A stretch of DNA of 52,675 bases from Desulfobacteraceae bacterium (GTDB taxonomy: Bacteria; Desulfobacterota; Desulfobacteria; Desulfobacterales; JACKCP01), in NCBI GenBank assembly GCA_050253255.1, contig JBFWJK010000002.1, positions 1 to 52,675 on the forward strand, given 5' to 3'. Within the stretch, counting starts at the first letter, position 1, and every line of letters begins with the position of its first letter. The notes under the pieces are model-generated. The model had not been told where the DNA came from. It saw only the letters and a program-made list of their open reading frames with translations, and did not search any database. Below, one piece after another: positions 15,290 through 52,675 of the stretch. The position numbers and the translations under genes were made by a program.

Positions 15290-15295
15290 AAAGTT

Positions 15296-30598: not shown

Positions 30599-30675
30599 GA
30601 AAGAAACTCTTTTTATTTTGATAAACATGGTTAACATAAAAATATGCCTTTAAAAAATATTTAGTTTCAAAACAG

Positions 30676-30728: not shown

Positions 30729-30737
30729 AGCCCTTCA

Positions 30738-30751
30738 ACTGGTCAACCAGT
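30738..30751. promoter_or_regulatory. Inverted repeat ACTGGT-CA-ACCAGT, a possible operator
   Basis: Perfect 6-2-6 inverted repeat located 12 nt upstream of the annotated activase start codon. Confidence 0.25.
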
Positions 30752-30762
30752 AAACCAAAACA

Positions 30763-34599: not shown

Positions 34600-34654
34600 T
34601 TTTTACAGCGACTGACTTTCAAATCAGTCAGACAGACTTAAACAAAAATACACA

Positions 34655-34691
34655 TAAAAAAATAAGAGGCTTAACTCTGGTCAAGCCTCTT
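34655..34691 (-). terminator. Rho-independent terminator of the rubrerythrin-like gene
   Basis: 9-bp stem AAGAGGCTT / AAGCCTCTT (34664-34672 / 34683-34691). A T-run follows on the minus strand (34655-34663). Confidence 0.65.
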
Positions 34692-34741
34692 ATAATTTGT
34701 TTACCGGACACAAAATTGCTTTTTATAAAAACACAGACAAT

Positions 34742-35236: not shown

Positions 35237-35447
35237 TTTTTTCTCCCTTTTGATTTAGATTTTTAAAGGACTGAGACCGGATTTTTTAATTTAATATGAA
35301 ATATTTATTTTTCAATACCATATTACACAAATCATTTCCACCTAAACCGGGCTTTATATATTTTTTTAAAATCTTAAACCAGTATAAAACCAGCTGTTTC
35401 ACAGTGACAAAACAAAATTCAAATCACTTATCAGATCCGGTATTGAT

Positions 35448-36851: not shown

Positions 36852-37030
36852 ATATACTTGAACTTCAAAGGACTAAAATCAATTTTTATCCTTTGAGTAA
36901 TACATAAGATTTATGAGATATCAAATATATTAAAAAGAAACAATCAATAAAATTCAATTTTCATCTCACAATAATTTTATCGAATTTTAGAAGATAATAT
37001 CTTGAATTTATTTAAAATTTTAAAACAGGA

Positions 37031-38932
37031 TTAAAGCTTGGGGCATTTATTTGTGCTGATCATTTTTTCTATTTCATCGGCCATCATTGGTTTTCCAAAA
37101 TAATAACCCTGCATACAGTCACATCCCATTTTGTGGAGAAGCTCTCCTACCTCCTTTGTTTCAACACCTTCTGCCGTTGTTTTTTTCTGAAGACTTTTTC
37201 CAAGACTTATGATTGTCTGAACAATTTTTCTGTTTTCAGGGGATCTATCCATATTTCTTACAAAAGAAAGATCAATTTTTATGTTATTGACAGGAAACAT
37301 ATGAAGATAGCTCAAAGAAGAAAAACCGGTGCCAAAATCATCAAGAGCAATTAAAAAACCAAGCTGATTGAGATATTTTAAATTGGAAATAACAAGGCTT
37401 TGATTTACCATTACTGAACTTTCAGTTATTTCAAACTCAATTTTTTCCGGATTAACATCATAATTGGCTATAAGCCTGTTTATTTTTTCGGGGAAATTTT
37501 CATCCTGAAGATCAATAGCTGACAGGTTTACACCAACTGTAAGGTCATAACCTTTTTTATTCCATTTTTCTGCCTGAGCAAGTGATTTCATAAGAATATG
37601 TTCAGTCAGCCTTTTAATTATCCCGGTTTTTTCAGCAATGGGAATAAATTTTCCGGGTGAAATCATACCATGCACAGGATGATCCCATCTTGCAAGTGCC
37701 TCTGCTCCTGTTATTCTTTTTTCTCTGAAGCAGTATCTGGGCTGAAACAACGGAAAAATGTTATCATTATCCATTGCAGACCTGAAGTCCACTTTTATGA
37801 AAATATCTAAGGAATCGATATTGTCATATTTTTCACTGTAAAGGCTTATTCCGTTTTTATCTGATTTTGACTTATGAAGTGCAACATCGGCTTTGCGGAT
37901 AAGATCTGATATATTTTCAGCGTCTTTGGGATAAAGTGAAATTCCCAGGGAAAGATCTATCTGAAACTTCTGTTCACCAAGTATAAAACTTTTTTCACAA
38001 TTAGTCACAATTCTTGAGGCTATTCCAAGGGCGTCATTTTCTGTTTCAATTCCAGGAAGAATAACTGCAAATTCATCGCCGCCGAACCTTCCGACAATAT
38101 CCTGTTCCCTGCAGGACTCCCTTATTCTTGCAGATATTATTCTAAGAGCAAGATCGCCGGTCTGATGACCGAAACTGTCGTTGATTTCCTTGAATCTGTT
38201 AAGATCAACCTTTATAAGAGCAGCAGAGCTGATTGCTCCGTTTTTAAGCATGCTCTTAAGTCTTTCAATTATAAAATTTCTGTTGGGAAGAGAAGTGAGT
38301 GAGTCGTGATATACCTGATGCTTCAGCTGCTTTGTTCTTTCTTTTACTGTTTTTTCAAGCAATAAGTTATTTTTTGTCAAAATTTCATAAAGTTCAATAC
38401 TTTCGAGAAAATTGGAGCAGACAAGAAGAGTGGTAGAAAGAAGAAGAAGAGAAATTTCAGGGATCTTCCCCATCTCATCTCTTGCAAAACTTGCCATAAA
38501 CATTCCTCTGATTCTTGAAGAAGTGGTCATGACATGAAGCAGAAGGTCATTTTGCTGATTAAGAGAATTGACAATAACTGATCTTTTTTCCCTTAAAGCC
38601 CTTGCAAATGTCCAGTCTTCTATCAGCCTTTCAAGCTCCTTCAAAATATAAGATTCATCAGAAAAATCGTTTCTGTAGGCAAGCCTGAAGTCAGAGGTTT
38701 TTTCATCAACCAGAAAAAATGAAACATCTTTAAGCGGAAGAATTTTTCTGATTCTCGATTCTATATCTTTTAAAAAGCTGAGTTTGTCATAATCACCGCT
38801 TTTGAGCCTGTCCTTGAGATTGAAGTCAAAAAGATTAAGGGCCTGCTCAAGCATTTCGACTGAATAGGTGTTTATTTTTTCAAGATATTTTATTCTTTCT
38901 TCCAAAAGCTGTTCTTTTTTTCCGGAAAACAT
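37031..38932 (-). CDS. GGDEF-EAL c-di-GMP turnover protein with an N-terminal GAF-like sensor region
   Basis: Intact GGDEF motif (RFGGDEFAVIL) with an RxxD I-site (REQD) 5 aa upstream. The EAL domain has EALARW, EITES, DDFGTGFSSLSYL, KIDLSFV, EGVE and QGYYFGKP. Confidence 0.9.
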   Translation of the reverse strand: MFSGKKEQLLEERIKYLEKINTYSVEMLEQALNLFDFNLKDRLKSGDYDKLSFLKDIESRIRKILPLKDVSFFLVDEKTSDFRLAYRNDFSDESYILKELERLIEDWTFARALREKRSVIVNSLNQQNDLLLHVMTTSSRIRGMFMASFARDEMGKIPEISLLLLSTTLLVCSNFLESIELYEILTKNNLLLEKTVKERTKQLKHQVYHDSLTSLPNRNFIIERLKSMLKNGAISSAALIKVDLNRFKEINDSFGHQTGDLALRIISARIRESCREQDIVGRFGGDEFAVILPGIETENDALGIASRIVTNCEKSFILGEQKFQIDLSLGISLYPKDAENISDLIRKADVALHKSKSDKNGISLYSEKYDNIDSLDIFIKVDFRSAMDNDNIFPLFQPRYCFREKRITGAEALARWDHPVHGMISPGKFIPIAEKTGIIKRLTEHILMKSLAQAEKWNKKGYDLTVGVNLSAIDLQDENFPEKINRLIANYDVNPEKIEFEITESSVMVNQSLVISNLKYLNQLGFLIALDDFGTGFSSLSYLHMFPVNNIKIDLSFVRNMDRSPENRKIVQTIISLGKSLQKKTTAEGVETKEVGELLHKMGCDCMQGYYFGKPMMADEIEKMISTNKCPKL

Positions 38933-38943
38933 TTTTTAATACC

Positions 38944-40170
38944 TTAACTTAAGAATTCAAGACTGGTCTGCATTTCAATCTGGAGCTGTCTTATTATTAC
39001 AGGAACTGCGTTTGAAGACAGACCAAGAATCTCCCATGAATATTCGTCAAGAGGGAGAACAAGCTTTTCACCTGAACAGCCGATTTCAACTGCATTGACA
39101 ATTACTTCTGCAAGATGGACAACAGAACACTGCAGCGGGAACCTGGAATTTTGAGGATTATGGTGATTCTTTGAAATATCTGTTACAAGATCAGGCATCT
39201 GCCATTTAAGACAAATTTTTTCTCCTGCTTCACAATGTGTGAAACCAAGATATTTTTCTTCAGCCTCAAAAAGAAAGAGATCCTTTTCCCAGGCTTCCTT
39301 AATTATCAGAGCTGTTTTCAAGGGTATTCTTTTAAGCATGATAAGCTTCCCTATATCATGCATAATACCTGCAACAAAAATCTGATTATAATCCTGGCAG
39401 TCTGTCTGTCTTGCAATAATTTTTGAGCAAAGCCCAACTGCCAGTGAATGAGTCCAGATTTTTTTCATATCAATATATTCAGAAGGTACATCCTTAAAAA
39501 TTTTGATCACAGAAAGTCCCATTGCAAGAAGACAAAGCTGCCTTGTTCCAAGGATTACAACAGCATTGTAAATTGTATCAATCTTTTTTGGAAATCCGTA
39601 AAAAGAGCTGTTGACAAGCCTTAAAGTCCCTGCACAAAGAGAAGAATCTTTTTCAACAATTTTTGCTATATCAGAAGCATTTCTTCTCGGATTTTCAATA
39701 GCTTCCATAAGTCTTGAAAAAACATCAGGAAGAACAGGGAGTTTTTCCTCATTTTCAATAAGATCCTCCAGTGTTAATATATCACTGAAACCTGTAATCA
39801 GGTCATAATCTTCATTTACCGAAAAATTTGGCATAAAGCCTTCAGGAGAAGAAAGGTTCATCTGCCTTCCATAGGGAAGAGTGAGCTTGAAAAGTTCTTT
39901 TATGCATGGATTTTTGACATTGGATCTAAAAAAACGGGCATTCGCTTTTTCAACTATATCCGAGAGCCTTAAATTCTGAGCATTTTTTTTTAAGCTGATT
40001 CTTTCTTCAAAAGCTACATCAACCTCATAGACACCCCACATCTTAAGAATGCGCAAATGATGTTTTTCGATTACAGAACCTCTGTTTAAAAGAACCCTGC
40101 CGTTTCTGTCTTCGATATCATCTTTTACAACCATTCCCGGAACAAGTTCAGATGTTGATATCTTTGTCAT
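38944..40170 (-). CDS. DUF3391-like N-terminal domain + HDOD domain protein
   Basis: The N-terminus ELVPGMVVKDDIEDRNGRVLLNRGSVIEKHHLRILKMWGVYEVDV resembles the N-terminal module of HD-GYP proteins. The HDOD core has LPVLPDVFSRLMEAI and GIMHDIGKLIM. Lies 11 nt upstream of the GGDEF-EAL gene. Confidence 0.8.
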   Translation of the reverse strand: MTKISTSELVPGMVVKDDIEDRNGRVLLNRGSVIEKHHLRILKMWGVYEVDVAFEERISLKKNAQNLRLSDIVEKANARFFRSNVKNPCIKELFKLTLPYGRQMNLSSPEGFMPNFSVNEDYDLITGFSDILTLEDLIENEEKLPVLPDVFSRLMEAIENPRRNASDIAKIVEKDSSLCAGTLRLVNSSFYGFPKKIDTIYNAVVILGTRQLCLLAMGLSVIKIFKDVPSEYIDMKKIWTHSLAVGLCSKIIARQTDCQDYNQIFVAGIMHDIGKLIMLKRIPLKTALIIKEAWEKDLFLFEAEEKYLGFTHCEAGEKICLKWQMPDLVTDISKNHHNPQNSRFPLQCSVVHLAEVIVNAVEIGCSGEKLVLPLDEYSWEILGLSSNAVPVIIRQLQIEMQTSLEFLS

Positions 40171-40681
40171 AAATATCCCTGTTAAAATTTTAGAACCATT
40201 TAAACTGCTGGCAAAAACTAAAAACCAGAGTCAGATTATATTAACCAGTTACCGGCAATATGTCAAAATAAGTTTTTAACTATAAACAATGATATTTATA
40301 AAAAACATTAAATAATTTTTAAGAACATGATTTATATAAATTCTTTGGTTTCTCTGATTTTAACTTATTATTAATTAAGGAAAATATAAACATATCTTCT
40401 TGAAAACCGAGCTGAGCTGAGTCTTATAAAAAAAAATACTCTTTAACATACTAAAAACTTTTAAAATTTATTTACTTTAAGAGAAAAAATAATTATATTA
40501 TTTTTTAAGTTTCCACATTTTTTACAGCACTAAAATAATTTTGATTTTTAAATATTTTGTTTATAAATCAATTTTATATTCACTAGCAAGCTTTTCAGCG
40601 AAGGAGGTGTGTATATTCAATTAATACAAGTACTAAAGTTCTTTTTTTTAAAATTTACTGTATCTAAAAACGGAGGTAATT

Positions 40682-41530
40682 ATGAAACAAATCAAACTAT
40701 TTCTTTTTGTATTTTTATTATGCTTTATGTTTTCACTAAACGCAGGCGCTGTCACTGTTACACCATTTGACAATTCCGATAACATGGCTCAGGCACTTTT
40801 AGGCACAGGTATTACAATTACAGGGACATCATATACAGGAGCAACCGGAGCATCCGGGTATTTTTCAGACGGTTTTTCATCAGGACTTCAGATTGACAAA
40901 GGAATACTTCTGACTTCGGGATTTGCTTCAAATGCCAACGGTAATTCCAATACAAGCGACGGCATAACAGGAGACAACGGTCTTCCAGGCAGCACTCTTC
41001 TCAACACCCTAATTCCTGGATATACAACTTATGATGCAACAATACTTTCCATAGATTTTCAAAGTGCGGGTGAAAATGCATATTTCAACTATGTCTTTGC
41101 ATCAGATGAGTACAATGAATATGTAAACAGCTCATATAACGATGTATTCGGTTTTTTCATGAATGATATAAACTATGCTCTTATTCCCGGAACTGATACT
41201 CCGGTTTCAATTAACAATGTTAACAACTTCAGCAACTCTTCATATTATTTCGACAATGACAACAACGACAACCCCGGAGCTTTCAACTTTGAATACGACG
41301 GATTTACATCAATGTTCACTGTATCCATAAACGGTCTTACTCCCGGTGAAACCTACAATCTGAAGCTTGCAATTGCCGATGCCGGAGACAATGTTCTTGA
41401 TTCAGGTGTATTCATTCAGGGAGGTTCTTTTTCAAACACTACTGATCCGGTTCCCGAACCTTCAACATTTATTCTTTTTGGACTTGGAATATTAGGGTTT
41501 TGTTCAATGATCAGAAAAAGACAAAACTAA
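40682..41530 (+). CDS. Choice-of-anchor-L domain protein with PEP-CTERM sorting signal
   Basis: Signal peptide. Domain segments GILLTSG, FNYVFASDEYNEYVNSSYNDVFGFF, EYDGFT and LAIADAGDNVLDSGVFIQGGSF. The C-terminus is PVPEPSTFILFGLGILGFCSMIRKRQN. Confidence 0.75.
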   Translation: MKQIKLFLFVFLLCFMFSLNAGAVTVTPFDNSDNMAQALLGTGITITGTSYTGATGASGYFSDGFSSGLQIDKGILLTSGFASNANGNSNTSDGITGDNGLPGSTLLNTLIPGYTTYDATILSIDFQSAGENAYFNYVFASDEYNEYVNSSYNDVFGFFMNDINYALIPGTDTPVSINNVNNFSNSSYYFDNDNNDNPGAFNFEYDGFTSMFTVSINGLTPGETYNLKLAIADAGDNVLDSGVFIQGGSFSNTTDPVPEPSTFILFGLGILGFCSMIRKRQN

Positions 41531-41562
41531 AAAACAGGTCAAAAAAGTTTTCTTTGATTAAA

Positions 41563-41599
41563 AAAACCGGGTTTGATTTTTAACCCGGTTTTTCTTTTC
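41563..41599 (+). terminator. Rho-independent terminator between the convergent PEP-CTERM and pilY1 genes
   Basis: 11-bp stem AAAACCGGGTT / AACCCGGTTTT (41563-41573 / 41582-41592) followed by TCTTTTC. An A-run upstream could allow bidirectional use. Confidence 0.6.
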
Positions 41600-41604
41600 A
41601 AAAA

Positions 41605-44600
41605 TCACCATTGTTTCCAGTAAAGCATTTTACCAGCAATTGTTGTTTTTGGAGGCATAGTCGGAAGACCTCCGGACGGCGGTGCAACACCGACTGCAAA
41701 GTCTGTTGCTCCGTTATTGAATTCGTCTTCTCCATAGTCCTGGATATCTCCTCTTGAAAGCTGGATGAGATATTTGAATTTCAAGTCAGAATCTATGTCA
41801 AATTTATCTACATCAGGACAGATATCAGCAAAAATGCCCTGACCGGTTGCACAGTTCAAGGCCCAGGATCTTGACTGGCCTCCGCACTCGCAGATCACGT
41901 TTGTTGGCATTGAAGTATTGAAAAAAACAATATTGCTGTCTGTTGCTGCAGGATCTGAATAACATCTTTCTCTCAAATAAGGACCTTCATTAGCTTTAAG
42001 AGGCACTTTCCATGCTGCGAGATCAGGTTTGGTATTCACATTCAGGAGATCATCGCAGGTGAGGTCTGTTGCATTGCTTATTTTATTTATTGTTCCTACC
42101 TTGCAGGTGTTTGCCGCATCGCATGAAAACGGAACACCGTAAAGGTAATTTACGTCATTTGAATTACTCTGGGTATCGTCGTCAGGAACAAAGTACCGTC
42201 CTGTCCCAAAGTAAAGATACGGATAGTTTGCGAAATCAGAAAAACATCTTGATAACACTACAGGGCCTGTAACAGGATTTCCTATTGAACCTGTAAGAAA
42301 GGAAGTATCGTAATTCCAGGCTGCAGGGTCTGAAGAACCTGTGTAGATTTTTATTACTCCCCCTCCCATGAGTTCGTACTCTTTCAGCGAATTATCGGTA
42401 TAACCGAGAAAAACGAAATCTGTCTGGCCATCATCATTCACATCAAAGCCGTCTGTGAAAAGTCTTCCGCCAAAAGCATTTTTGATATTGAATTCATTAG
42501 TATCATCACCGGTTATATTAAGTTCTGAGCCGGTTAAAAGGTCAACTGTAAAGACCTTGAGATTTTGAACAGAGGTTCCGTCATAACCTGTCGGCCCGGA
42601 GGCAAACATCACAAAATGTTTGTAGTTTCCGTCAGCATCTTTTCTTTTTACATACGCCGGACCTGAATATGAGAAACCAAGTCCGTCAGGAGCATATCTC
42701 CAAAGATATTTCGGATTCTTGGGATCTGAAATATCAAGGGCAAAATATGCTGAACGTCCTACCGGAGCAGTATCAAGCGGAGGGTTTACGCTGCCGTTGC
42801 TGTTCCCTCCGCCAAATCTCATTCCCCCTATAAGTATGGTCTGGGAACCTGTATTGATAATATATGGCTTCATATCCACTGTATAAAGGTGGTCATATTC
42901 AGGCGATGCCATAAATCTCAGGTAAGGCATAGCGTCCTTTGGAACAAAAGCCCACTCTTCTATTCCGATCTTATCCTGAGTGCAGTTTACTGAGTTATCA
43001 TCGCAAATCTGTGTAGGACTGATTTTCACACCTGTATTTCTCAGATATCCAAGCCTGAAGGCGTGAAGCATACCTGAGTTGCTGCCTACATATATTACTG
43101 AATAATTATCATAACTTACAATAGTTGGGGAGGAGTAGGTTATGTCACCTAACTTCCAAACATTTTCAGAAAGAGAACTGTCAGTTGCTCTTGTCCGGCA
43201 GCCGTCATAATCGCGCCCTCTTGTGTAGCTGATAAGTTTTTTAAAATCGGGAGCCCCTGAAGCATCAAGAAGGCACGGATTATAATCAGCAGTTCCAAGA
43301 CTTGATTTAAACAAATCACTGTTGTCTGCCTTAAATTCTTTCAGATTGTCATCTTTATCCACCCCATAAATCTTTCTGTCCTCAGGCTTTGTGTTTTTTA
43401 GATTTTCTCCGCAGTCAAAAAGATTTTTTACATCCTGAAGAGAAGAATAAACCATGTCAGGATCTGAATCTAACTCTGTTCCGTATTCATTTGAATCATA
43501 TGCATTGATTTTCAAAGAATCATTTTTGACCAGATAATCAAGTATTCTGTCTTCCTCTATATCAAGAATATAGTTTTCATTTGTATCTTCTCTTATATTC
43601 TGGACCAGTTCAAATGCACTGGAAGCATTCTTTATGTAATCATTAAGATACCAGTTTGATACAAGATCGCTTGTCCATTGAACTTTTTTTTCGTTCTCAA
43701 ATTCCTTTTCAGGATAAAACGCAGCCTGAGCAATTGCAGAACCGCTGGATATTCTTGATGTAAGAGCTGTAACAGCTGTTCCCGAAGAAGTACCCTGCCG
43801 GATTTCTTCAAATATCGATGTCAGGGCTTTTGCCATGGCCTCTCCGTCATCAGCTTTAAAAAAACTGTCAGGAACTCCGTCTTTGTCTTTATCCCATTCC
43901 TTACAGCAGTCATCATAATCTACGCCCGGGTTACACTTAGTTCTTGGGAAGCTTACATCAAGACTGTTATCAGTTTCTTTAAATTCATAGGGAGTATTTG
44001 AAGAACATGATTCAAGATTATTATATTTTCCAAAAGCTGCAACTGTTTTCATAGAATTTTCGCCAGTCTGAGAATCAGAAAATGCAAAAAGAGAATAAAC
44101 ATCTGCGTTCTGAGTACCCGCTAACTTTTCAACTCCTGAAGCATCAACTTCTGATCTTAAATCTAATGAATGAAGCTTATGCGCCCACGTATCAGGGTCC
44201 TGGCTCCCTCCATATTCACCGTCAGAAATTAAAACAACATAAGTTTTTCTGCACCATGCAGGCTCCATGATACCATCATTGTTTTTTTGATAGTATGGAT
44301 CATATGACGTACCAATACCAACGAATCCGCTGTTATAACTGCTGATCAGTGAAGAATCCTGGGTAAGATAGTAATATGCTTCTTTAAGAGCCTCACCCGT
44401 ATGAGTACCGTTGTAGGCAAGAGTATCTTCAAAAGCCGATATCAATTTTGACTCATCATTCTGATGAAGACCATACTTGATTAACCCTTCCTTTGCACTG
44501 CTGTTACCTGAATTTGCATATGCAATAAAACCGAATCTTACCTTGTCGAAATTCTCCTGTATTATTCCTTTCCTTTGATCTTTATCAATTTTAACATTGG

Positions 44601-45270
44601 CATATCTTTCAAATATTTTTTGCTGATTAGACTCACCATAATTTTTATAAAGCGTTATTATCATATCATTGAAGTAAGCATTTCCTTTGTCATAATTTAC
44701 CGGCCGTATATAAAAACCGTAATCTGTCCCTGAAAGAGTTACTGATCTTTTTGCTCCTTTTGGTTTTAAAATGCAGTAATTCTGACCTTCAGGACATTCT
44801 GCATAACCGCCGAAAAGACTTTTAAAAGAGACATCCACTCTTGACATCAGAATAAAGTTTAAAAAATTCCCGGAAAGACTGTCTTTTGAACCAATTTCTC
44901 TATCGGTATATGATGTGTTTTCGTCAATTTCCCAGTATCCCAGAGAATTATATTTGTAATATTTCTCTGTATCAAAATAGCCGAAATATATTTTACTTTT
45001 ATCATAAGACACATTGATATTATTACTGAAGTTTCCGTAATTGGCCACATCGTAACTATATCCATGCCACACAGTTCCATAATTAGCCGGCCCCTGCATA
45101 CTTCCGGAATAGTCCATGACAAACAAAACATTGGCCTTGGCATCGGCACTGATAAAGGGTGGAAGAGCTGCATAATCAGAATTGGATGCCGACATGGAAA
45201 CACCAGGGATACTAAAAAGGAAAAACACAAGAAAAATAACTGTATTTTTGGAAAAACTAATAGACATCAT
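41605..45270 (-). CDS. pilY1: PilY1/PilC-family type IV pilus tip protein (N-terminal VWA, C-terminal beta-propeller)
   Basis: 1221 aa. Signal peptide, LPPFIS...NVLFVMDYSGSM (MIDAS), GNFLNFILMSRVDV, VVLISDGEYGG, the propeller signature YVGSNSGMLHAF, and a DVNDDGQTD loop. Confidence 0.85.
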   Translation of the reverse strand: MMSISFSKNTVIFLVFFLFSIPGVSMSASNSDYAALPPFISADAKANVLFVMDYSGSMQGPANYGTVWHGYSYDVANYGNFSNNINVSYDKSKIYFGYFDTEKYYKYNSLGYWEIDENTSYTDREIGSKDSLSGNFLNFILMSRVDVSFKSLFGGYAECPEGQNYCILKPKGAKRSVTLSGTDYGFYIRPVNYDKGNAYFNDMIITLYKNYGESNQQKIFERYANVKIDKDQRKGIIQENFDKVRFGFIAYANSGNSSAKEGLIKYGLHQNDESKLISAFEDTLAYNGTHTGEALKEAYYYLTQDSSLISSYNSGFVGIGTSYDPYYQKNNDGIMEPAWCRKTYVVLISDGEYGGSQDPDTWAHKLHSLDLRSEVDASGVEKLAGTQNADVYSLFAFSDSQTGENSMKTVAAFGKYNNLESCSSNTPYEFKETDNSLDVSFPRTKCNPGVDYDDCCKEWDKDKDGVPDSFFKADDGEAMAKALTSIFEEIRQGTSSGTAVTALTSRISSGSAIAQAAFYPEKEFENEKKVQWTSDLVSNWYLNDYIKNASSAFELVQNIREDTNENYILDIEEDRILDYLVKNDSLKINAYDSNEYGTELDSDPDMVYSSLQDVKNLFDCGENLKNTKPEDRKIYGVDKDDNLKEFKADNSDLFKSSLGTADYNPCLLDASGAPDFKKLISYTRGRDYDGCRTRATDSSLSENVWKLGDITYSSPTIVSYDNYSVIYVGSNSGMLHAFRLGYLRNTGVKISPTQICDDNSVNCTQDKIGIEEWAFVPKDAMPYLRFMASPEYDHLYTVDMKPYIINTGSQTILIGGMRFGGGNSNGSVNPPLDTAPVGRSAYFALDISDPKNPKYLWRYAPDGLGFSYSGPAYVKRKDADGNYKHFVMFASGPTGYDGTSVQNLKVFTVDLLTGSELNITGDDTNEFNIKNAFGGRLFTDGFDVNDDGQTDFVFLGYTDNSLKEYELMGGGVIKIYTGSSDPAAWNYDTSFLTGSIGNPVTGPVVLSRCFSDFANYPYLYFGTGRYFVPDDDTQSNSNDVNYLYGVPFSCDAANTCKVGTINKISNATDLTCDDLLNVNTKPDLAAWKVPLKANEGPYLRERCYSDPAATDSNIVFFNTSMPTNVICECGGQSRSWALNCATGQGIFADICPDVDKFDIDSDLKFKYLIQLSRGDIQDYGEDEFNNGATDFAVGVAPPSGGLPTMPPKTTIAGKMLYWKQW

Positions 45271-45607
45271 CGCTTTTTACCTTTTCTGAGTAAATTAGAA
45301 CAACATTGTCTTCTTTGGACAATACATGAACAAAATCATATTTTTGAATAATTTTAAAATTTTCTTCAGCATCTATGGTTCTGATTCTTTTGTATTTAAC
45401 CGGCTTGTGCCTGTAGAATAAAATCTGATTTTTGTTTTTTTCTATGTACTGAACCGGCCCGGCAATCATTTTGTAACCCTGGTCTTCAAGTTTTTTTGCA
45501 ATAGCATTTAAGGGAGATTTACTTTCAGCCGGAACTGAACCTTCTTCAGAAAATAATCCGTCCTGAAAACAAAAAACAAAAAATACAACCAGTAAAATAT
45601 GCTTCAT
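45257..45607 (-). CDS. Small secreted protein, unknown function
   Basis: 116 aa with a signal peptide (MKHILLVVFFVFCFQDG). Its 3' end overlaps the pilY1 start by 14 nt. Confidence 0.5.
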   Translation of the reverse strand: MKHILLVVFFVFCFQDGLFSEEGSVPAESKSPLNAIAKKLEDQGYKMIAGPVQYIEKNKNQILFYRHKPVKYKRIRTIDAEENFKIIQKYDFVHVLSKEDNVVLIYSEKVKSDDVY

Positions 45608-45636
45608 ACTGCCCCCGTTTTTTAACCTTATTAAAA

Positions 45637-46356
45637 TTAATTCTGTCTTAAAAAAAAGAAAATATCTTCGGGCATCCCAACACTGACAATACCCTCAGGA
45701 TTTATAGCAAATGGGAATTTATTGATGGAAAGAGCTTTGGCTACCAGCCTGTTATAATCAATTGAATCATAAGTAAATTCTTCTTTTAAATTCTGATTTG
45801 CGTTTCCGCAGGAATCGCTGATAAAGCACTCAAGAGCCTTTTTTTTATCATTTTGAGCTATTTCAAAAATTTCCCTCGTTTTCTGAATACTTTTCTCAGA
45901 AGATATCGGTACTATTATAAAATAAACTTTAAATTCATCATTTATCTCAGAAAGCTCAATAATTTCCTTTGCAAGCTTATGACAGTAAAAGCACCCTGGC
46001 TCAGCAAATACGTATGCTTTTTTCTCACCAGACCCTATCCCCAGACTGAACATTTTTTCAGGTTTTATACCAAGAAAGTTAAAGTCAACTCTGTTTTTAA
46101 AATACTTCATTTCCTGAACTGAAGAAATTTTTCTCCCGTTCCAGACATCAAAGAATTCTCCCTGAAAAACATATCTGCCGTCCTCAGATATCAGATAATT
46201 AATGCCGGATTTGGTTTTTACCAGATTGAGATTTTCAAGAGGTAATCTGTTTTTCTGAATAATATTTTCCGGAGGAATAAAATCTGCAGAACAAAAGGAA
46301 GAAAAAAAAACTACAAAAAAATATGAAAGTATAAAATACTTCAGGAAATAATTCAT
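45637..46356 (-). CDS. DsbC/DsbG-like periplasmic thiol:disulfide isomerase
   Basis: Signal peptide, DsbC-like N-terminal dimerisation segment (INYLISEDGRYVFQGEFFDV), and a thioredoxin fold with the CxxC motif PGCFYCHKL. Confidence 0.7.
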   Translation of the reverse strand: MNYFLKYFILSYFFVVFFSSFCSADFIPPENIIQKNRLPLENLNLVKTKSGINYLISEDGRYVFQGEFFDVWNGRKISSVQEMKYFKNRVDFNFLGIKPEKMFSLGIGSGEKKAYVFAEPGCFYCHKLAKEIIELSEINDEFKVYFIIVPISSEKSIQKTREIFEIAQNDKKKALECFISDSCGNANQNLKEEFTYDSIDYNRLVAKALSINKFPFAINPEGIVSVGMPEDIFFFLRQN

Positions 46357-46373
46357 TTTAAAAAACCTTATAT

Positions 46374-46910
46374 TCAGTTTGAAAAACCGGCTTCAACCAC
46401 AACGTTGCCTCCGTTTTTTGCAGAACGCGCTATAACTACAAATTCATTATCTGAGCTGTTCAGATTTCTGTAAACAACATATTGAGCATCTGGATCGGCA
46501 GAAAGATTGCGGGGATTTATAACCGCCTTTCCCGCACTCCAGTCGTTTACAATCTTATCAACTTTTATTGCATTCAAAACAGGAGTGTTTGAAGTATCGT
46601 AGCTGGCTCCGTCTTTCATATACGCGTCATCTTCATTATAAAGATCCAGAATATCATTCACCCATGAAGCTGAATTATCTGCAATCCCGTTCAGAACAAG
46701 ACTTTTTGCCTGATTTACCGCCGCATCCGCAAGAATCAGATTTTCTTTATAGACTTTATAATTTCTGCTGATCTGCAGATCAGTTGAAGAAGTTGACATG
46801 GATCCTATTCCGATAACAGTGAGAAGCAGCATTATAAGAAGAGTTGTAAGAAGAACAGAGCCTTTTTCATTGTCAGAGGATAAAAAAAACGGATATAAAA
46901 TTTTATTCAT
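46374..46910 (-). CDS. pilX: PilX-like (GspK-type) minor pilin
   Basis: PilX N-terminal domain pattern KGSVLLTTLLIMLLLTVIGIGSMSTSSTDLQISRN...AVNQAKS. No Glu at position +5. Confidence 0.7.
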   Translation of the reverse strand: MNKILYPFFLSSDNEKGSVLLTTLLIMLLLTVIGIGSMSTSSTDLQISRNYKVYKENLILADAAVNQAKSLVLNGIADNSASWVNDILDLYNEDDAYMKDGASYDTSNTPVLNAIKVDKIVNDWSAGKAVINPRNLSADPDAQYVVYRNLNSSDNEFVVIARSAKNGGNVVVEAGFSN

Positions 46911-46932
46911 AAAACACTCTCATAATTTTTTG

Positions 46933-47310
46933 TTACAGGCCTTTCACCCACGGAAAACTCAGGGAATGATTTCTTCCTCCCTCTGCCCACAACACAGTAA
47001 CAGTTATGTCAAGAGTAAGGTTCCCGTTATCTACAACATTCCATTGAACATTATATGTTTTATTGCCGGCATTTTTTGTTTCATTGTGACCGCCGGTATT
47101 AAAGGCAGGATCAAGAGGGCTTGTAATATCCGATAATTCCTCTATTTTACCCATGGCAATATCGGTTGCATGAACTATGCTTCTCGAATCTGCAAGACCC
47201 TTTGCAAAATACGCCTGCATCATGCTCAGTGCAAAAAGCCCCACTGAGAACAATGCAAGAGCAAAAAGCACTTCGATCAATGTAAAACCTGATTCTTTAT
47301 TTTTTAACAT
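46933..47310 (-). CDS. pilV: PilV-like minor pilin
   Basis: Prepilin motif G|FTLIEVLFALALFSVGLFALSMMQ, which is the PilV-type LxxGLxAL..Q pattern. 125 aa. Confidence 0.8.
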   Translation of the reverse strand: MLKNKESGFTLIEVLFALALFSVGLFALSMMQAYFAKGLADSRSIVHATDIAMGKIEELSDITSPLDPAFNTGGHNETKNAGNKTYNVQWNVVDNGNLTLDITVTVLWAEGGRNHSLSFPWVKGL

Positions 47311-47335
47311 TTGGAAGCTTCTCCACTCTGTTTAT

Positions 47336-47974
47336 TTACATATTTCTCAGTTTTATTTCATTTTCAAAACAATATGTATTGTCAAACTCATCCTTGAATG
47401 CACCTGTTATTTTTCCGCAGATTCTGATTCTTACCATACTTATGTCTCCCAGATTGCCATTCCCTGTCGGATCATTATCCACTGTACCGTCATCAAGTAT
47501 ATAGGTAAAAACAGCCGAATCTATTGTTCCGTTTTCGGTCAGAGGTGAAAATGGCTGCCCTGCACCGTTTCTGAACATTATTGTATCGGCTGCACTGTCA
47601 TACCAGTATGAAAGATCAAACTCGCAGCCGCCGTCTCCGTCATGGTCGTATTTTATTGAAATCGAATTTTGATCTGTATCATTTTTATCAATTTCTGCAC
47701 CGGAATATGAAGCTCCGTCATAAAAACCGGCACAGGCTGCTGTCTGTGAAGGATCAAGACCTGCCATCATGACATTACCAGACATCATTTCCATTACCGC
47801 TCTGATGTCCTGCTGAACCCCTGCAACCTTTTCCTGGACTGTATTTACTCTATTTGTCGAAATAAAAAAACTTGTCAGAGCAAGAAGAAAAAAGCCTGAA
47901 ACTGCAAGAGCAATTAATATTTCTATAAGAGTAAAACCTGCATTTCTGCAGAATTTATTATCTGTTCCAGTCAT
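47336..47974 (-). CDS. pilW: PilW-like minor pilin
   Basis: G|FTLIEILIALAVSGFFLLALTSFFIS...VQQDIRAVMEMMSGNVMMAG matches the PilW N-terminal pattern. Confidence 0.75.
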   Translation of the reverse strand: MTGTDNKFCRNAGFTLIEILIALAVSGFFLLALTSFFISTNRVNTVQEKVAGVQQDIRAVMEMMSGNVMMAGLDPSQTAACAGFYDGASYSGAEIDKNDTDQNSISIKYDHDGDGGCEFDLSYWYDSAADTIMFRNGAGQPFSPLTENGTIDSAVFTYILDDGTVDNDPTGNGNLGDISMVRIRICGKITGAFKDEFDNTYCFENEIKLRNM

Positions 47975-47988
47975 ATTTTATCTGCCTT

Positions 47989-48519
47989 TTAATTGATTTT
48001 AACTCTGCCGCCCGGCATCACTTCCAAAAAAATTTCATATCCGGAATCGTTGGAAAATTTTACCTTTGAAGATGCTCCCACATCAGGCAGACCTCTTGAG
48101 TTGAAAGAAAAAAATGAGCTACCAAAATTATCGTTAATCAACTTAACGCCAGATGTCCCGTCCAGACTGAACGAAAATATCATTTCATCATCTGCAGGTT
48201 TGCATGAATTGTCGGAATTGGTATCAAAACAGCCGAAGGCACTTCCGCTGCTTCCTCCGCCTGTGTAGGTAAATTCCACCAAAGATTCTCTGTTGTTTTT
48301 CACAGCTTCCATCTTTGCTTTCTGAATATTTACTCTCAGCTCTCTTGCTGCGGATTTAGCCTTGTAATCAGGTATAAGTCCGCTAAGCCCGTTCATTGCA
48401 AGAGAAGCAACTATTCCGGCAATCGCAACTGCTATCATAAGTTCGATAAAGGTGAATCCGTTTTTTTTGTTTGATAAGATACAGGGAGGAAACTTTGGAA
48501 AAAACTTTTTTTCAGACAT
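47989..48519 (-). CDS. FimT/FimU (GspH-domain) minor pilin
   Basis: G|FTFIELMIAVAIAGIVASLA...KSAARELRVNIQKAKMEAV. I prefer the start at 48519 (MSEKK), which follows an AGAGG Shine-Dalgarno sequence. The track start is 48564. Confidence 0.75.
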   Translation of the reverse strand: MSEKKFFPKFPPCILSNKKNGFTFIELMIAVAIAGIVASLAMNGLSGLIPDYKAKSAARELRVNIQKAKMEAVKNNRESLVEFTYTGGGSSGSAFGCFDTNSDNSCKPADDEMIFSFSLDGTSGVKLINDNFGSSFFSFNSRGLPDVGASSKVKFSNDSGYEIFLEVMPGGRVKIN

Positions 48520-48610
48520 TAAAACCTCTGTTACTTTAAAAATCAAAATGGCTTTATCTTTCAATAATTTTAAAAAAGATTTTTTCTACTAATTACTACT
48601 TAAGTTTAAG

Positions 48611-48639
48611 CTAATAGCTAAAATAATGTCTATTGTCAA
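48611..48639 (-). promoter_or_regulatory. Candidate sigma70 promoter for the minus-strand pilin operon
   Basis: On the minus strand: TTGACA (48639-48634), a 17-nt spacer, then TATTAG (48616-48611). The -10 element is weak. Confidence 0.3.
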
Positions 48640-48751
48640 TACTTTACAGGAAAAAATTTATTTACTTTCAAATAGTTACATGCAGCCTTGAATTCCAGCC
48701 CAAATTAACCGATTAATAATTTTTTTAAATAAACACTGTAAATTAAATAAA

Positions 48752-48780
48752 TTGCAAATTAATTTCATTGTTTGTATAAT
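48752..48780 (+). promoter_or_regulatory. Candidate sigma70 promoter for the plus-strand pilin operon
   Basis: TTGCAA (48752-48757), a 17-nt spacer, then a perfect TATAAT (48775-48780). It lies about 26-35 nt upstream of the first possible start codons. Confidence 0.45.
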
Positions 48781-48805
48781 AACTTCAATTTTAATAACAT
48801 AAACA

Positions 48806-49387
48806 GTGTGCAATATGCCTAACCCCTCCAGCTTAAAGAACAGATCAGGATTCACTATAATTGAACTTATCATTACTTTAATGGTAATGGGAATTCTTGC
48901 GGGGATTTCATACCCCATAATAACTTCATGGCTTCCAAGAGAAAAACTTAAATCTGCCGCAAGGGATCTTGTCTCGGATGTCCAGACTGCAAAAAGTCTT
49001 GCCGTTGAAAAAAACACAACATACACCCTTTTATTCGACGACTCTTCCACACCAGGTAAATATTTCTGTTTTCATGACGCCAACTCAAATTCAGCTTTTG
49101 ATTCAGCCACAGAAACCAAAATATTTGAAACTGATTTCAACTCGGATGAAAATAAAAAATACAATATCGACTTTGGAACAGGCAATGCGGTAAACGACTG
49201 GAACGGAAACGCTATAGCTTCAAGTATTGTACTCACAGACAAAGTGATTGTGTTCGATGAAAAAGGGCTTGCAGACAGATCAGGATCAGTTTTTCTCAAA
49301 AATAAAAACAATGACATATGCTACAGCGTAAGCATAACTGGTGTTGGCTCATTAAAAATCAGGGAGTTTAACGGATCATCATGGTAA
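48806..49387 (+). CDS. FimT/FimU (GspH-domain) minor pilin, second copy
   Basis: G|FTIIELIITLMVMGILAGIS...KSAARDLVSDVQTAKSLAV. GTG at 48806 or ATG at 48815 could be the start. Confidence 0.75.
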   Translation: MCNMPNPSSLKNRSGFTIIELIITLMVMGILAGISYPIITSWLPREKLKSAARDLVSDVQTAKSLAVEKNTTYTLLFDDSSTPGKYFCFHDANSNSAFDSATETKIFETDFNSDENKKYNIDFGTGNAVNDWNGNAIASSIVLTDKVIVFDEKGLADRSGSVFLKNKNNDICYSVSITGVGSLKIREFNGSSW

Positions 49388-50094
49388 ATAACTTTATCTG
49401 TAAAAGTCAGAAAGGATTCACACTGGTTGAAATAATGGTTGCCATGGCAATTTCCTTCATAATTCTTGCCGGTGTTTACGTAAGTCTTAACTCACAGCAT
49501 AAAAGTTATGTTGTGCAGGATGACATTGTCGAAATGCAGCAGAATATAAGAGGTGCAATACTGACAATGACAAATGACATTCGTGAGACAGGATGCGATC
49601 CCCTTGAAAAATCTGTAGCAGGTCCGGAAACTGCTCTCCCGGGAATTTTTTCATTTACAAGAGACATAAACGATGCCGCCAACTCATTTGAACCTGACGG
49701 TGATGTCAATGACAACGAAGAATATATCACATACGGGCTTTTACCTGCTGAAGACACAGACTCAGACGGAATACCCGACTCAGGAGGTGTTTCTTCCCTT
49801 GGAAGAATAAGCGGTGCCGGCAGTTTTCAGACTCTTGTAGAAAACGTTGAATTTGTAGAATTTAATTACATACTCGATGACGGAACTTCCGCATCCTCAG
49901 TTCCAGTTCACAATCTCGGCCAGATCCGCTCAGTTCAGATCAGCCTCCTCCTTAGATCGTCAAAAACAGACCCTCAATATTCAGATACAAAATCATATAC
50001 AGCGGCCTCAGGCACTGTTTTCGGCCCATACAATGACAATTACAGAAGACGCCTTGGATCCACCTCAGTTTACTGCAACAATATGGGGTATTAA
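49381..50094 (+). CDS. pilW: PilW-like minor pilin, second copy
   Basis: G|FTLVEIMVAMAISFIILAGVYVSL...MQQNIRGAILTMTNDIRETG. Overlaps the preceding gene by 7 nt. Confidence 0.75.
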   Translation: MVNNFICKSQKGFTLVEIMVAMAISFIILAGVYVSLNSQHKSYVVQDDIVEMQQNIRGAILTMTNDIRETGCDPLEKSVAGPETALPGIFSFTRDINDAANSFEPDGDVNDNEEYITYGLLPAEDTDSDGIPDSGGVSSLGRISGAGSFQTLVENVEFVEFNYILDDGTSASSVPVHNLGQIRSVQISLLLRSSKTDPQYSDTKSYTAASGTVFGPYNDNYRRRLGSTSVYCNNMGY

Positions 50095-50097
50095 ATC

Positions 50098-50619
50098 ATG
50101 ATCTCGGTAAATAAAAACGGATTTACACTGATAGAAGTTCTAATGGCAATGGTTGTTTTAAGTATAGGCATCCTTGCAATTTCAATGATGCAGATCAAAG
50201 CGATCGAAGGCAATTCAGAGGCTTACTCAAGATCTGTTGCAAACAATGTAGGAACAACTGTCATCGAAGAGCTGAAAAGACTTCCTTTTGATGATTCAAA
50301 TTTATCTGCCGGATTCAATCTCGATGCAGGGAAAGCTTCAGCAGGAGGATCTCCCGATCCATCTGCCGCAGGGCATGAACTGAGTGCAGGACTGCTTCCC
50401 GCTTTGTCAAATGTTCTGACTGTTTCAGGCAATCAGGTAATTGATGACAACAACAAATCTTATACGGTTTTCTGGAATGTAATAAACAACAACATTTTTA
50501 CAGGGAGCGGTACTAAAACACCATATTGCACAATAAAGCTTTTTGTATACTGGGACACACCTCTTGGCACCAGTCACCTTGAGTTTACAGCTGTAAAAGA
50601 CAATAATTTTTTAAATTAA
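50098..50619 (+). CDS. pilV: PilV-like minor pilin, second copy
   Basis: G|FTLIEVLMAMVVLSIGILAISMMQ. Confidence 0.8.
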   Translation: MISVNKNGFTLIEVLMAMVVLSIGILAISMMQIKAIEGNSEAYSRSVANNVGTTVIEELKRLPFDDSNLSAGFNLDAGKASAGGSPDPSAAGHELSAGLLPALSNVLTVSGNQVIDDNNKSYTVFWNVINNNIFTGSGTKTPYCTIKLFVYWDTPLGTSHLEFTAVKDNNFLN

Positions 50620-50633
50620 AATCAGGAATAAAA

Positions 50634-51200
50634 ATGGATAAGTTTAATTACAGCAACCAAAAAGGATATGTTATAATCACTGCCCTTCTTGTACTGATAG
50701 TTGTAACTTTACTTGGTACATGGGCATTGAAGTCAAGTTTTTTTGAAATTAAAATTTCCGGGAATCAGCAGAGATGGAACAAAAATTTCAATATTTCAGA
50801 CGGCGGGGTAAAAAAAGAGGCTTCAAATCTGGGGTATGCTTCATCCAGTTATTACAGCTGGTACCAGATTTCCGACCCTGATAAATACAACAGCCTTCTT
50901 CTGCCGCCTGCGACCCAGACTGCCTTTGATCCAGGCAGTGACATGACCATTACATCCGACTACCACACAAAATTCAGCTCCAACCAGAAAGATCCTCTGT
51001 ACTGGCCTCACCAGAATCTTCTTGGAAGCACTTCCGACGACACCACAGACTATTCATACTATGTAAAATATCTTTATCCTGACAACCCCCCGAAAGGTTA
51101 TGATTCGTCCTCATTTTCAGGCTACAAATTCCAGATTATTTCAAACAGAAACATTACTGTAGAGGCAGGCGGAAACAAGGTCGGCGTAAAAAAGAATTAA
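50634..51200 (+). CDS. pilX: PilX-like (GspK-type) minor pilin, second copy
   Basis: KGYVIITALLVLIVVTLLGTWALKSSFFEIKISGN fits the PilX N-terminal domain. No Glu at position +5. Confidence 0.65.
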   Translation: MDKFNYSNQKGYVIITALLVLIVVTLLGTWALKSSFFEIKISGNQQRWNKNFNISDGGVKKEASNLGYASSSYYSWYQISDPDKYNSLLLPPATQTAFDPGSDMTITSDYHTKFSSNQKDPLYWPHQNLLGSTSDDTTDYSYYVKYLYPDNPPKGYDSSSFSGYKFQIISNRNITVEAGGNKVGVKKN

Positions 51201-51229
51201 CACTAAATTTAATGAAGGAGACAGGTATA

Positions 51230-52675
51230 ATGCGTTTTTTTAACTTTAAAAACAAAACCGGATATTGTTCTATAATTTCAATATTGATCTTCTTCAGCTT
51301 ATTCTCATATTCCCATGCAAAAGATACTGATATTTACGAGGTAAACATAAAGCAGAACGCATATATGCTTATGGACAACTCCGGTTCAATGGACTTTGGA
51401 GTTTATGAGCATACAATAGATTACGGAGAAATGTTTGACTACCTCTTTACAATGGTCGACGGCGGTACGGGTACCTACATCCATGATACAGTGAACAACA
51501 GTGATGTTTTTTATCAGTCTCACCAGCCCAAAAATAAAATCTTTCTCTGGCAGGGTAAAATAGGAGTTACAACCAAAGTGGTTGACGGAAAAACAATAGC
51601 TTTTACCGGAGATGCTTCCGATCCTGACTATTTATGGTATTCAAACACTCTTGTGGACACCCATACAGTCATCGACGAATCAGGCAATCTTGCCCACGAC
51701 GGATCAGCTTCTGCCCAGAGACTTACCACAGATGCAGACGGAAATATTCTGTTTGACGGGGTAAAACTTCCCCTGGGCCAGGATATAAAACTCCATGATT
51801 TCAGTTCTCTATATGACGGAACAATTGTTGACAACGGATTCGGCGGTCTTTTAAATGCTCCGGGATATTATTTCAGCGGATATGAGGGGGTTACAGCAGG
51901 AAGCCTAAACACTGCAGAAAACGGAGATTCAAACATTTTCTTCTTTGTGACAGGCAACTGGGTAAACATGCAGGCCATGTACAATCTTCACTATACAACT
52001 AACAACCCGAACCCCACTGGAGCCTCAACTGGTGATTCCGCCTGGAAGTTTGAGCTTTTCCCAATTTCAGAATCCGGATGGTCAATAATTGAATACAATC
52101 TGGATTACCCTGAAGGTGATGGAGTCAAGTACGAAAACAACCTCAAGGAGAAAGACACGGAGCGCACCATAACTCATCCGGGGGCAAAACAGATTCAGAT
52201 TCATTTTTCAGAGTTTGATGTTGAAGGAGATAAAAATGCGGCAACCTTCAAATACGATTATGTTGTTTTAAGGGACAGCGCAGGTGCTGCAGTCCAGTAT
52301 TATGACAATGACAACAAGCCAACATCTGGAGACGGCTGGTCTGTCACTGTTTATGACGACACAGTAAACATTGCACTAGCTACAGACTATTCTGTTCTCG
52401 GGACAGGATATGTAATCGATAAAATAAGAGTAACTTATCATCTCGATTCCTATTTAATGCAGAACAGACTGGATGTCGCAAAGGATGCAATGCTTTATGC
52501 CCTTGACACTTTCAAAGGAAAAATCAACTGGGGATTTGCAACATTCAAATACAGCGGAACATCAGGAGACGGAGCAACTCTGCACCACTCTCTCAATCCT
52601 TCTCTTTCAGATGATGCAAATTCGGCTTCAATCAAAACTCATGTTCAAAATCTTACTCCAATGTACGGAACGCCC
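51230..52675 (+). CDS. pilY1: PilY1-like VWA protein, 5' partial (runs off the window end; absent from the ORF track)
   Basis: ATG at 51230 follows an AAGGAG Shine-Dalgarno sequence. My translation gives 482 codons with no stop through to the window edge. It contains a signal peptide, the MIDAS motif YMLMDNSGSM, GNWVNMQAMYN, a CUB-like segment, and then a VWA helix (RLDVAKDAMLYAL ... LTPMYGTP). Confidence 0.75.
   Translation, partial: MRFFNFKNKTGYCSIISILIFFSLFSYSHAKDTDIYEVNIKQNAYMLMDNSGSMDFGVYEHTIDYGEMFDYLFTMVDGGTGTYIHDTVNNSDVFYQSHQPKNKIFLWQGKIGVTTKVVDGKTIAFTGDASDPDYLWYSNTLVDTHTVIDESGNLAHDGSASAQRLTTDADGNILFDGVKLPLGQDIKLHDFSSLYDGTIVDNGFGGLLNAPGYYFSGYEGVTAGSLNTAENGDSNIFFFVTGNWVNMQAMYNLHYTTNNPNPTGASTGDSAWKFELFPISESGWSIIEYNLDYPEGDGVKYENNLKEKDTERTITHPGAKQIQIHFSEFDVEGDKNAATFKYDYVVLRDSAGAAVQYYDNDNKPTSGDGWSVTVYDDTVNIALATDYSVLGTGYVIDKIRVTYHLDSYLMQNRLDVAKDAMLYALDTFKGKINWGFATFKYSGTSGDGATLHHSLNPSLSDDANSASIKTHVQNLTPMYGTP

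Follow-up and report, generated by a model that had tools for sequence, protein, structure and literature searches.

A 52,675-nucleotide contig of a Desulfobacteraceae bacterium (GenBank assembly GCA_050253255.1, contig JBFWJK010000002.1), analysed at its full length and referred to here as the window, carries two gene sets that each encode four minor pilins and a large protein of the PilY1 type and that diverge from a common AT-rich spacer. Multiple minor-pilin/PilY1 sets are thought to give one pilus machine different adhesive tips. With a probability of about 0.78, we interpret the two sets as complete, independently transcribed priming/tip modules for type IVa pili (T4aP), which belong to anciently diverged types and would be alternative or redundant, and their back-to-back arrangement as a lineage-specific juxtaposition rather than a dedicated switch.

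Set 1 is a seven-gene operon on the minus strand that runs from 48519 down to 41605 and encodes, in order, a GspH/FimU-like (H), a PilW/GspJ-like (W), a PilV/GspI-like (V) and a PilX-like (X) minor pilin, a DsbC-like protein, a small secreted protein and PilY1. Set 2 begins at 48806 on the plus strand with open reading frames (ORFs) of 193, 237, 173 and 188 aa, followed by a 482-codon ORF without a stop. The intergenic gaps inside either set range from -14 to +29 nt, so that both sets fit operons. The ORF listing agrees with the gene map that the initial annotation had drawn for both strands, including the 286-bp spacer (48520-48805) from which the sets diverge and whose GC content of 0.21 compares with 0.358 for the whole window. 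One entry of that map is to be amended: the last plus-strand ORF, described as PilY1-like, belongs to this family but is not complete, as only the N-terminal third is present. The window is the complete contig, and the plus-strand pilY1 is therefore cut at the contig edge. The features of the locus are as follows:

41605..45270, minus strand: set 1 PilY1, 1221 aa with 21 cysteines; signal peptide, von Willebrand factor A (vWA) domain with DYSGS as the motif of its MIDAS (an adhesion site that depends on metal ions), and beta-propeller with a DVNDDGQTD loop; PF28373 PilY1_homolog_dom (precomputed match).
45257..45607, minus strand: set 1 small secreted protein, 116 aa, no family match; its 3' end and the pilY1 start share 14 nt.
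45637..46356, minus strand: set 1 DsbC-like periplasmic thiol-disulfide oxidoreductase, 239 aa, CFYC motif; Thioredoxin_2 score 27.7 (cut-off 27).
46374..46910, minus strand: set 1 PilX-like minor pilin, 178 aa, no Glu+5; Pfam PilX_N 36.4 bits (cut-off 25.5).
46933..47310, minus strand: set 1 PilV/GspI-like minor pilin, 125 aa; N_methyl, with GspI and the TIGR model for PilV below threshold (PilV E 4e-4).
47336..47974, minus strand: set 1 PilW/GspJ-like minor pilin, 212 aa; N_methyl, with weak PpdB/PRK10557 and GspJ matches.
47989..48519, minus strand: set 1 GspH/FimU-like minor pilin, 176 aa, G↓FTFIE prepilin site; Pfam N_methyl 34.4 bits and GspH 26.3 bits, both above cut-off.
48520..48805, no strand: divergent intergenic spacer, 286 bp, delimited by sequence and composition.
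48806..49387, plus strand: set 2 GspH/FimU-like minor pilin, 193 aa (GTG at 48806) or 190 aa (ATG at 48815); N_methyl 30.2 and GspH 27.7 bits.
49381..50094, plus strand: set 2 PilW, 237 aa; Pfam PilW 41.4 bits (cut-off 26), N_methyl 38.6.
50098..50619, plus strand: set 2 PilV-like minor pilin, 173 aa; N_methyl 33.1, TIGR02523 PilV 50.0 (cut-off 52.2).
50634..51200, plus strand: set 2 PilX-like minor pilin, 188 aa, no Glu+5; Pfam PilX_N 25.7 (cut-off 25.5).
51230..52675, plus strand: set 2 PilY1, N-terminal 482 aa only; signal peptide, MIDAS motif DNSGS, long insert with a CUB fold at ~285-402 and start of the vWA core (from the translation and orthologues).

The eight pilin-like proteins can be assigned to families with graded clarity. 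The Pfam model N_methyl exceeds its cut-off in all six H, W and V proteins, and the same holds for GspH in the two H proteins and for PilX_N in the two X proteins, whereas the PilW model is reached by the W protein of set 2 only, that of set 1 falling short, and PilV remains below cut-off in both sets. A profile check of all proteins therefore establishes the H and X families for both sets, PilW for set 2 and PilV for neither. The W and V proteins of set 1 are placed by weak PpdB, GspJ, GspI and PilV matches, by their position and by their similarity to W and V of set 2; orthologues of the set 1 W protein likewise give a weak match to PF27121 PpdB. The class-III prepilin N-terminus, initially ascribed to all corresponding proteins of the two sets, is borne out by N_methyl for H, W and V, in whose translations a G↓F-T-x-I/V-E site can be read in both sets. 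It does not extend fully to the X proteins: in both, the hydrophobic helix is present, Glu+5 is missing, and the matching model is PilX_N, not N_methyl. A missing Glu+5 is usual in the PilX/GspK-type subunit. All eight proteins additionally show weak matches to GspH, GspI, GspJ and GspK models, far below the respective cut-offs.

Corresponding pilins of the two sets are recognizably related, but distant. BLASTP alignments between the sets give 34% identity for H (104 aa aligned, E 1e-14), 28% for W (201 aa, E 2e-14), 30% for V (131 aa, E 9e-14) and 30% for X (57 aa, E 2e-5), and the same comparison of the N-terminal parts of the two PilY1 proteins yields nothing significant. Pilin identities of 28-34%, together with the lack of a PilY1 N-terminal match, argue that the sets do not stem from a recent duplication, as had been surmised by eye from their strong divergence. 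Judged by these alignments, the two sets are ancient paralogues.

The large protein of set 1 is a member of the PilY1/PilC family with a PilY1-type beta-propeller, as judged from its relatives and from profile comparison. It has 91 database relatives, many of which are named PilY1 and bear PF05567, and a profile built from 24 set 1 PilY1 relatives (A1) matches the C-terminal structure of Pseudomonas aeruginosa PilY1 (3hx6) over ~410 residues with an E-value of 2.9e-47. Within the propeller, DVNDDGQTD fits the EF-hand-like calcium-loop pattern Dx[DN]xDGxxD and aligns in the hidden Markov model (HMM) alignment with the calcium-binding loop DNNSDGVAD of 3hx6, although calcium binding itself is a prediction. 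The N-terminal region displays MIDAS-type vWA motifs (DYSGS, GTHTGEAL and LISDG), and the Pfam VWA model stays below threshold on this protein. Family profiles are required to see these relationships, since a phmmer search of either large protein as a single sequence against the PDB finds no match.

The large protein of set 2 is likewise predicted to be of the PilY1 type, with a propeller deduced from orthologues of ~1500 aa. A metagenome scan returned 52 loci with a set 2 relative, many of them containing uninterrupted ORFs of 1450-1570 aa that match both N- and C-terminal profiles. A profile from the C-terminal pieces of the first set 2 search (A2) matches 3hx6 with an E-value of 7e-10 and reaches a probability of 98.7% against A1. 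The profile of 25 full-length set 2 orthologues (A4), which are 45-65% identical in the N-terminal part, reaches 3hx6 at E 1.7e-16. Against the set 1 family, A4 gives an hhalign probability of 100% with E 4e-44 locally and 997 collinear columns globally. The landmarks common to A4 and the set 1 family comprise the MIDAS motif DxSGSM right after the signal peptide, GTPxGEAL, CRKxYV..SDG, the NDGMLH propeller start and FGTG. Together with the match of A1 to 3hx6 for set 1, the match of A4 to 3hx6 and this collinearity lead us to regard both large proteins as PilY1-type. The window sequence stops at the GTP of GTPLGEAL, such that the remaining MIDAS Thr and Asp are seen in the orthologues only, and PF05567 is below threshold or gives no match on the set 2 orthologues. 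A shorter set 2 protein, suggested by a word-based homologue search that had returned fragments and frameshifted pieces only, was discarded in light of the intact ~1500-aa ORFs from the metagenome scan. The same type of scan with the set 2 H protein gave no matches.

The set 2 PilY1 is distinguished by a long insert that follows the first strand of the vWA domain and on the predicted structure contains a CUB-fold domain. The AlphaFold2 model of the 482-aa fragment has a mean predicted confidence (pLDDT) of 55.7, and only the segment ~285-402 is usable, with pLDDT ~80. With this segment, Foldseek retrieves many CUB chains at probability 1.0 and with template-modelling scores (TM-scores, normalized to the target) of up to 0.69. 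The Pfam CUB model (cut-off 21.4) scores 22.4 in the orthologue from L089 and 18.6, below cut-off, in the window protein, and the A4 profile gives weak matches to CUB chains. We also note that a conserved secreted protein of ~113-119 aa is encoded directly after set 2-type pilY1 genes elsewhere (L089:14518-14865, L098:14542-14901, L100:12921-13265, L101:14618-14959, L135:14499-14840 and L002:7534-7875), whereas the corresponding position in the window lies past the contig end. One copy has a weak DUF1344 match, and there is no sequence relation to the 116-aa protein of set 1.

The arrangement of the two sets in the window is not conserved among relatives. In L086, a sister Desulforegulaceae contig with a 60% identical PilY1, collinearity extends over window positions 30100-48417; set 1 is alone there, and the HDOD, GGDEF-EAL, MatE, rubrerythrin-like and HGD-D genes come after it as in the window. 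Fer4/CCG, S4, UDG and DFP genes take the place of set 2 upstream of the H gene of L086, and the break in synteny with the window falls at the spacer. Set 1 also stands alone in L087 and L088, with a pilin gene 5-6 kb off, and in L001 a module of a third kind, composed of W, V, X and a 1751-aa PilY1 with PA14, stands in tandem after it. Set 2 is found alone in L002 and L003, and in L004 upstream of set 1 on the same strand. Divergent set 1/set 2 layouts occur in none of the 52 loci with set 2 relatives, nor in the closest set 1 relatives examined. About 18 of these 52 loci extend 3 kb or more upstream of the H gene, and a divergent minor-pilin operon is present there in none, while four of the 52 (L114, L118, L119 and L126) have a set 1-type pilY1 upstream in tandem. 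Among 80 genome loci surveyed, about ten contain, within 10 kb, two PilY1 modules, which are usually in tandem; one of these loci, L031, is an independent divergent pair, where a TPR gene lies between the operons. Taken together, the tandem, solitary and divergent cases indicate that adjacent modules are common and variable in orientation, and that the head-to-head form of the window is not conserved. Set 1 is the resident module of the lineage, with conserved synteny in close relatives, and set 2 is an accessory module of patchy distribution. In L003, genes for a sigma-54 activator and a response regulator are located just downstream of the stand-alone set 2 module (L003:14933-16319, minus strand) and are a candidate regulator of this module type.

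The completeness of both modules and their strong divergence, greatest in the N-terminal parts of PilY1, make alternative tips for one machine the natural reading, and by analogy the proposal of the initial annotation that one machine is equipped with two alternative tip complexes is plausible. The direct precedent is Myxococcus xanthus (PMC7541494, PMC8833165, PMC9109919). Multiple minor-pilin/PilY1 sets are common and have been proposed to allow priming/tip complexes with different properties (PMC8833165). In M. xanthus, the PilY1 N-termini diverge among the three clusters (PMC7541494, PMC13190605), and the PilY1 proteins are differentially expressed (PMC9109919). If the locus works as in M. 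xanthus and P. aeruginosa, the four pilins of a set and its PilY1 would come together at the inner-membrane platform of one T4aP machine whose genes lie elsewhere in the genome, would prime polymerization of the major pilin and would then sit at the pilus tip, where the differing N-terminal domains of PilY1 may confer differing adhesive or sensing properties. Each operon would have its own promoter within the AT-rich spacer. A common machine, the location at the tip and the functional differentiation of the two sets are thus suggested by the analogy. A link to T4aP is also visible in the neighbourhoods of relatives: genes with a canonical type IVa major-pilin N-terminus lie within a few kb of set 2 modules in eight metagenome loci, and two near-complete genomes (L087 and L088) have ComP_DUS/Pilin_GH pilin genes at a distance of 5-6 kb from set 1.

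Several points weigh against this interpretation. Family profiling of the window ORFs finds no major pilin and no assembly-machine gene (pilA or pilBCDMNOPQ), as noted at the outset, and the partner machine is assumed. The set 2 gene is cut by the contig end, and its predicted propeller is drawn from orthologues with an identity of 45-65% over the N-terminal part. In the local Pfam/NCBIfam libraries, no PilY1 model scores above cut-off for either large protein. Moreover, genes by themselves do not separate redundancy or co-expression from specialization.

The latter point bears on the possibility, which we consider real but doubtful, that the sets are co-expressed, redundant back-ups priming the same pilus and differing in robustness towards redox or calcium conditions, not in adhesin specificity. 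In M. xanthus, cluster_1 alone or cluster_3 alone sustains T4aP motility under standard conditions (PMC8833165). The contents of the two modules would accommodate a difference in robustness, in that set 1 has its own DsbC-like oxidoreductase and the calcium-loop-like motif DVNDDGQTD, while the set 2 orthologues are low in cysteine (a median of 9 in ~1500 aa, versus 21 in the 1221 aa of set 1 PilY1) and show no aligned counterpart of the calcium loop in the profile alignment. This explanation, which is itself a reading of gene content, sits uneasily with the pairwise unrelated N-terminal parts of the two PilY1 proteins, and the additional CUB-fold domain modelled in set 2 points to different ligands.

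The two extra genes of set 1 provide a further perspective on how the modules may differ. The DsbC-like protein, in addition to its Thioredoxin_2 match, scores 22.9 for DsbC_N (cut-off 25) and 32.5 for the DsbC equivalog (cut-off 215), with DsbG and ThlOxiredEpsilon also below their cut-offs, and its gene is kept at the same position in L001, L086, L087 and L088. Orthologues of the 116-aa protein are found only directly upstream of set 1-type pilY1 genes (L001, L086, L087, L088 and L006), and a homologue search with this protein returns one near-identical match only. Distant DsbC-like ORFs are also present on the same strand upstream of pilY1 in Geobacteraceae (L028, L039, L040 and L049, at ~7 bp to 1.1 kb) and in Nitrospirota (L032 and L036, at 2-3 kb), and the minor-pilin gene order differs in these lineages. 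This suggests that the association between DsbC and PilY1 is recurrent, and because such distant genes accompany pilY1 in both groups, the pairing may have arisen repeatedly. A joint reading, which we offer tentatively and regard as unlikely to hold in full, is that the DsbC-like and small proteins are dedicated periplasmic maturation factors for PilY1 in strict anaerobes and that the two tips differ in ligand as well as in redox or calcium needs. Here the proteins would be functionally analogous to TfcP, encoded in M. xanthus cluster_1, which sets a precedent for an accessory periplasmic protein in a minor-pilin cluster (PMC8833165). The idea that a DsbC-like neighbour pairs with a cysteine-rich PilY1 was rejected, the cysteine density of PilY1 being 1.72 versus 1.81 per 100 aa in a comparison of loci that have such a neighbour with loci that do not (Mann-Whitney p = 0.71). 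A full-text literature search for PilY1, disulfide isomerase and minor pilin jointly found nothing relevant. As a separate observation, the near-complete Desulfobacterales genome L088 contains a gene for a VKOR-DsbA fusion (L088:4468-5655) that adjoins the pilin gene and lies ~1 kb from the set 1 module, another case of disulfide-forming machinery in an anaerobe that is linked to pilus genes.

The spacer had initially been proposed as a shared control region through which one of the two sets is chosen, with the mirror-image layout beside cyclic di-GMP (c-di-GMP) genes as the mark of a switchable system. In this scenario, the spacer would act as a bistable or reciprocal control element, for example through one regulator or nucleoid protein, such that a cell displays only one of the two tip complexes at any moment, perhaps controlled by c-di-GMP. 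The divergent promoters must indeed fit into 286 bp with a GC content of 0.21; HDOD and GGDEF-EAL genes are located downstream of set 1; the divergent H-W-V-X-Y1 pair of L031, from another Desulfobacterota metagenome-assembled genome, is an independent case; and in M. xanthus differential PilY1 expression proceeds via the HsfBA phosphorelay (PMC9109919). The spacer itself, however, provides no such indication. It is not flanked by inverted repeats, the only long inverted match nearby being the common prepilin-coding sequence, and a pattern search finds no sigma-54 site in it. The two sigma-70-like matches are not above chance (2.9 ± 1.5 in shuffles), Rfam, including its c-di-GMP riboswitches, gives no match on the spacer, and the 5' leader regions fold no better than shuffled sequences. 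No recombinase gene is present among the window ORFs profiled, so that neither the flanking repeats nor the nearby recombinase of an invertible or phase-variable promoter switch are found. Upstream regions of set 1 from five genomes show no conserved promoter motif, the AT-rich DNA aligning uninformatively. The absence of the layout from the 52 loci and from the closest set 1 relatives, as well as the TPR gene that separates the two operons of L031, speak further against a dedicated element. Finally, in L086, which lacks set 2, set 1 is likewise followed by the HDOD and GGDEF-EAL genes; their proximity is therefore older than the dual layout and uninformative about it, and the c-di-GMP genes are part of the ancestral neighbourhood of set 1. 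Both of the initial proposals are thus not upheld, a switch of this kind appears improbable, and a plain pair of divergent promoters is the default reading of the spacer.

We consider it very improbable that one set serves another type IV filament machine, such as a secretion pseudopilus resembling the type II secretion system (T2SS), as proposed for Geobacter: the weak GspH-K matches of all eight pilin-like proteins, in a window lacking machine genes that could decide the matter, are far below cut-offs, type IVa major pilin genes adjoin relatives of both sets, and both sets end in PilY1. PilY1 is associated with T4aP and does not belong to the T2SS.

Viewed as two juxtaposed T4aP tip modules, the locus is a further example of a known arrangement, namely several minor-pilin/PilY1 sets, and its closest parallel is found in M. 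xanthus clusters 1-3 (fimU-pilV-pilW-pilX-pilY1). As in M. xanthus, the genome has several sets, each of four minor pilins and one PilY1, the pilins are recognizably homologous between sets, the PilY1 N-termini are highly divergent with a conserved C-terminal propeller, and one cluster has an extra periplasmic accessory gene by pilY1 (TfcP in cluster_1; here the DsbC-like and small secreted proteins). The two sets of the window abut head to head, however, whereas those of M. xanthus form separate gene clusters, as described in PMC13190605. The accessory here is a DsbC-like protein with a thioredoxin fold rather than a cytochrome c, and the set 2 PilY1 has a putative CUB-fold insert where M. 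xanthus has DUF4114 or lectin-type domains. The comparison is also one between a characterized system and a locus known from its genes.

The resemblance to the P. aeruginosa cluster fimU-pilVWXY1Y2E lies in the core pilins, equivalent to GspH/I/J/K, in a PilY1 with N-terminal vWA-MIDAS and C-terminal propeller (3hx6), and in a small ORF adjoining pilY1. The present locus differs in its order (H-W-V-X-Y1), in the lack of a PilE-like fifth pilin, in the DsbC-like gene inside the operon and in having two sets instead of one. With GspH-I-J-K of the T2SS, the sets share four proteins of the same predicted roles and a K/X-type subunit without Glu+5, but T2SS operons are without PilY1 and the scores to Gsp equivalog models are far below cut-off here. 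It is modestly new that a DsbC-like gene is part of the operon, that one PilY1 bears a CUB domain and that two sets are directly juxtaposed. The locus contributes a case from the Desulfobacterota in which two module types are well separated, one with a DsbC-like oxidoreductase and the other with a CUB-fold adhesin domain, and illustrates that PilY1 modules are gained beside one another in variable orientations. It may be of use for cataloguing PilY1 diversity and for picking candidates for adhesion studies in sulfate reducers, and opens no new mechanism.

The remaining genes of the window encode Mla, BatA-D/MoxR, KdtA, glycolysis enzymes, HGD-D, MatE, GGDEF-EAL and HDOD proteins and a PEP-CTERM protein. 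The downstream neighbours of set 1, given as context, are:

37031..40170, minus strand: HDOD and GGDEF-EAL proteins (Pfam); the same pair follows the set 1 pilY1 in L086.

Between the set 1 pilY1 and the HDOD gene lies a gene for a PEP-CTERM 'choice-of-anchor L' surface protein (40682-41530, plus strand; NF038133, 247 bits), which is not at the corresponding position in the sister contig L086. It is the least conserved stretch relative to a 99.2%-identical strain contig, with identity falling to 94%. A 40-nt imperfect inverted repeat with an AACCCGG...CCGGGTT core (41534-41621) is situated between the convergent PEP-CTERM and pilY1 genes and is probably a bidirectional terminator; its Rfam matches are weak and all sub-threshold. 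A contig of a near-identical strain from another sample (L005, Ga0376486_000021, 97.6 kb) matches window positions 20747-41452 and stops just short of the 3' end of the set 1 pilY1. Both assemblies break at the pilus locus, that of the window inside the set 2 pilY1, which may reflect strain-level heterogeneity there. Elsewhere in the window, a complete BatA-D/MoxR-type, aerotolerance-like operon (9388-16270, minus strand) encodes MoxR AAA_3, DUF58, two vWA proteins, a vWA-TPR (BatB-like) protein and BatD; it adjoins a gene for a FliL-domain protein and bears no relation to the pilus sets.

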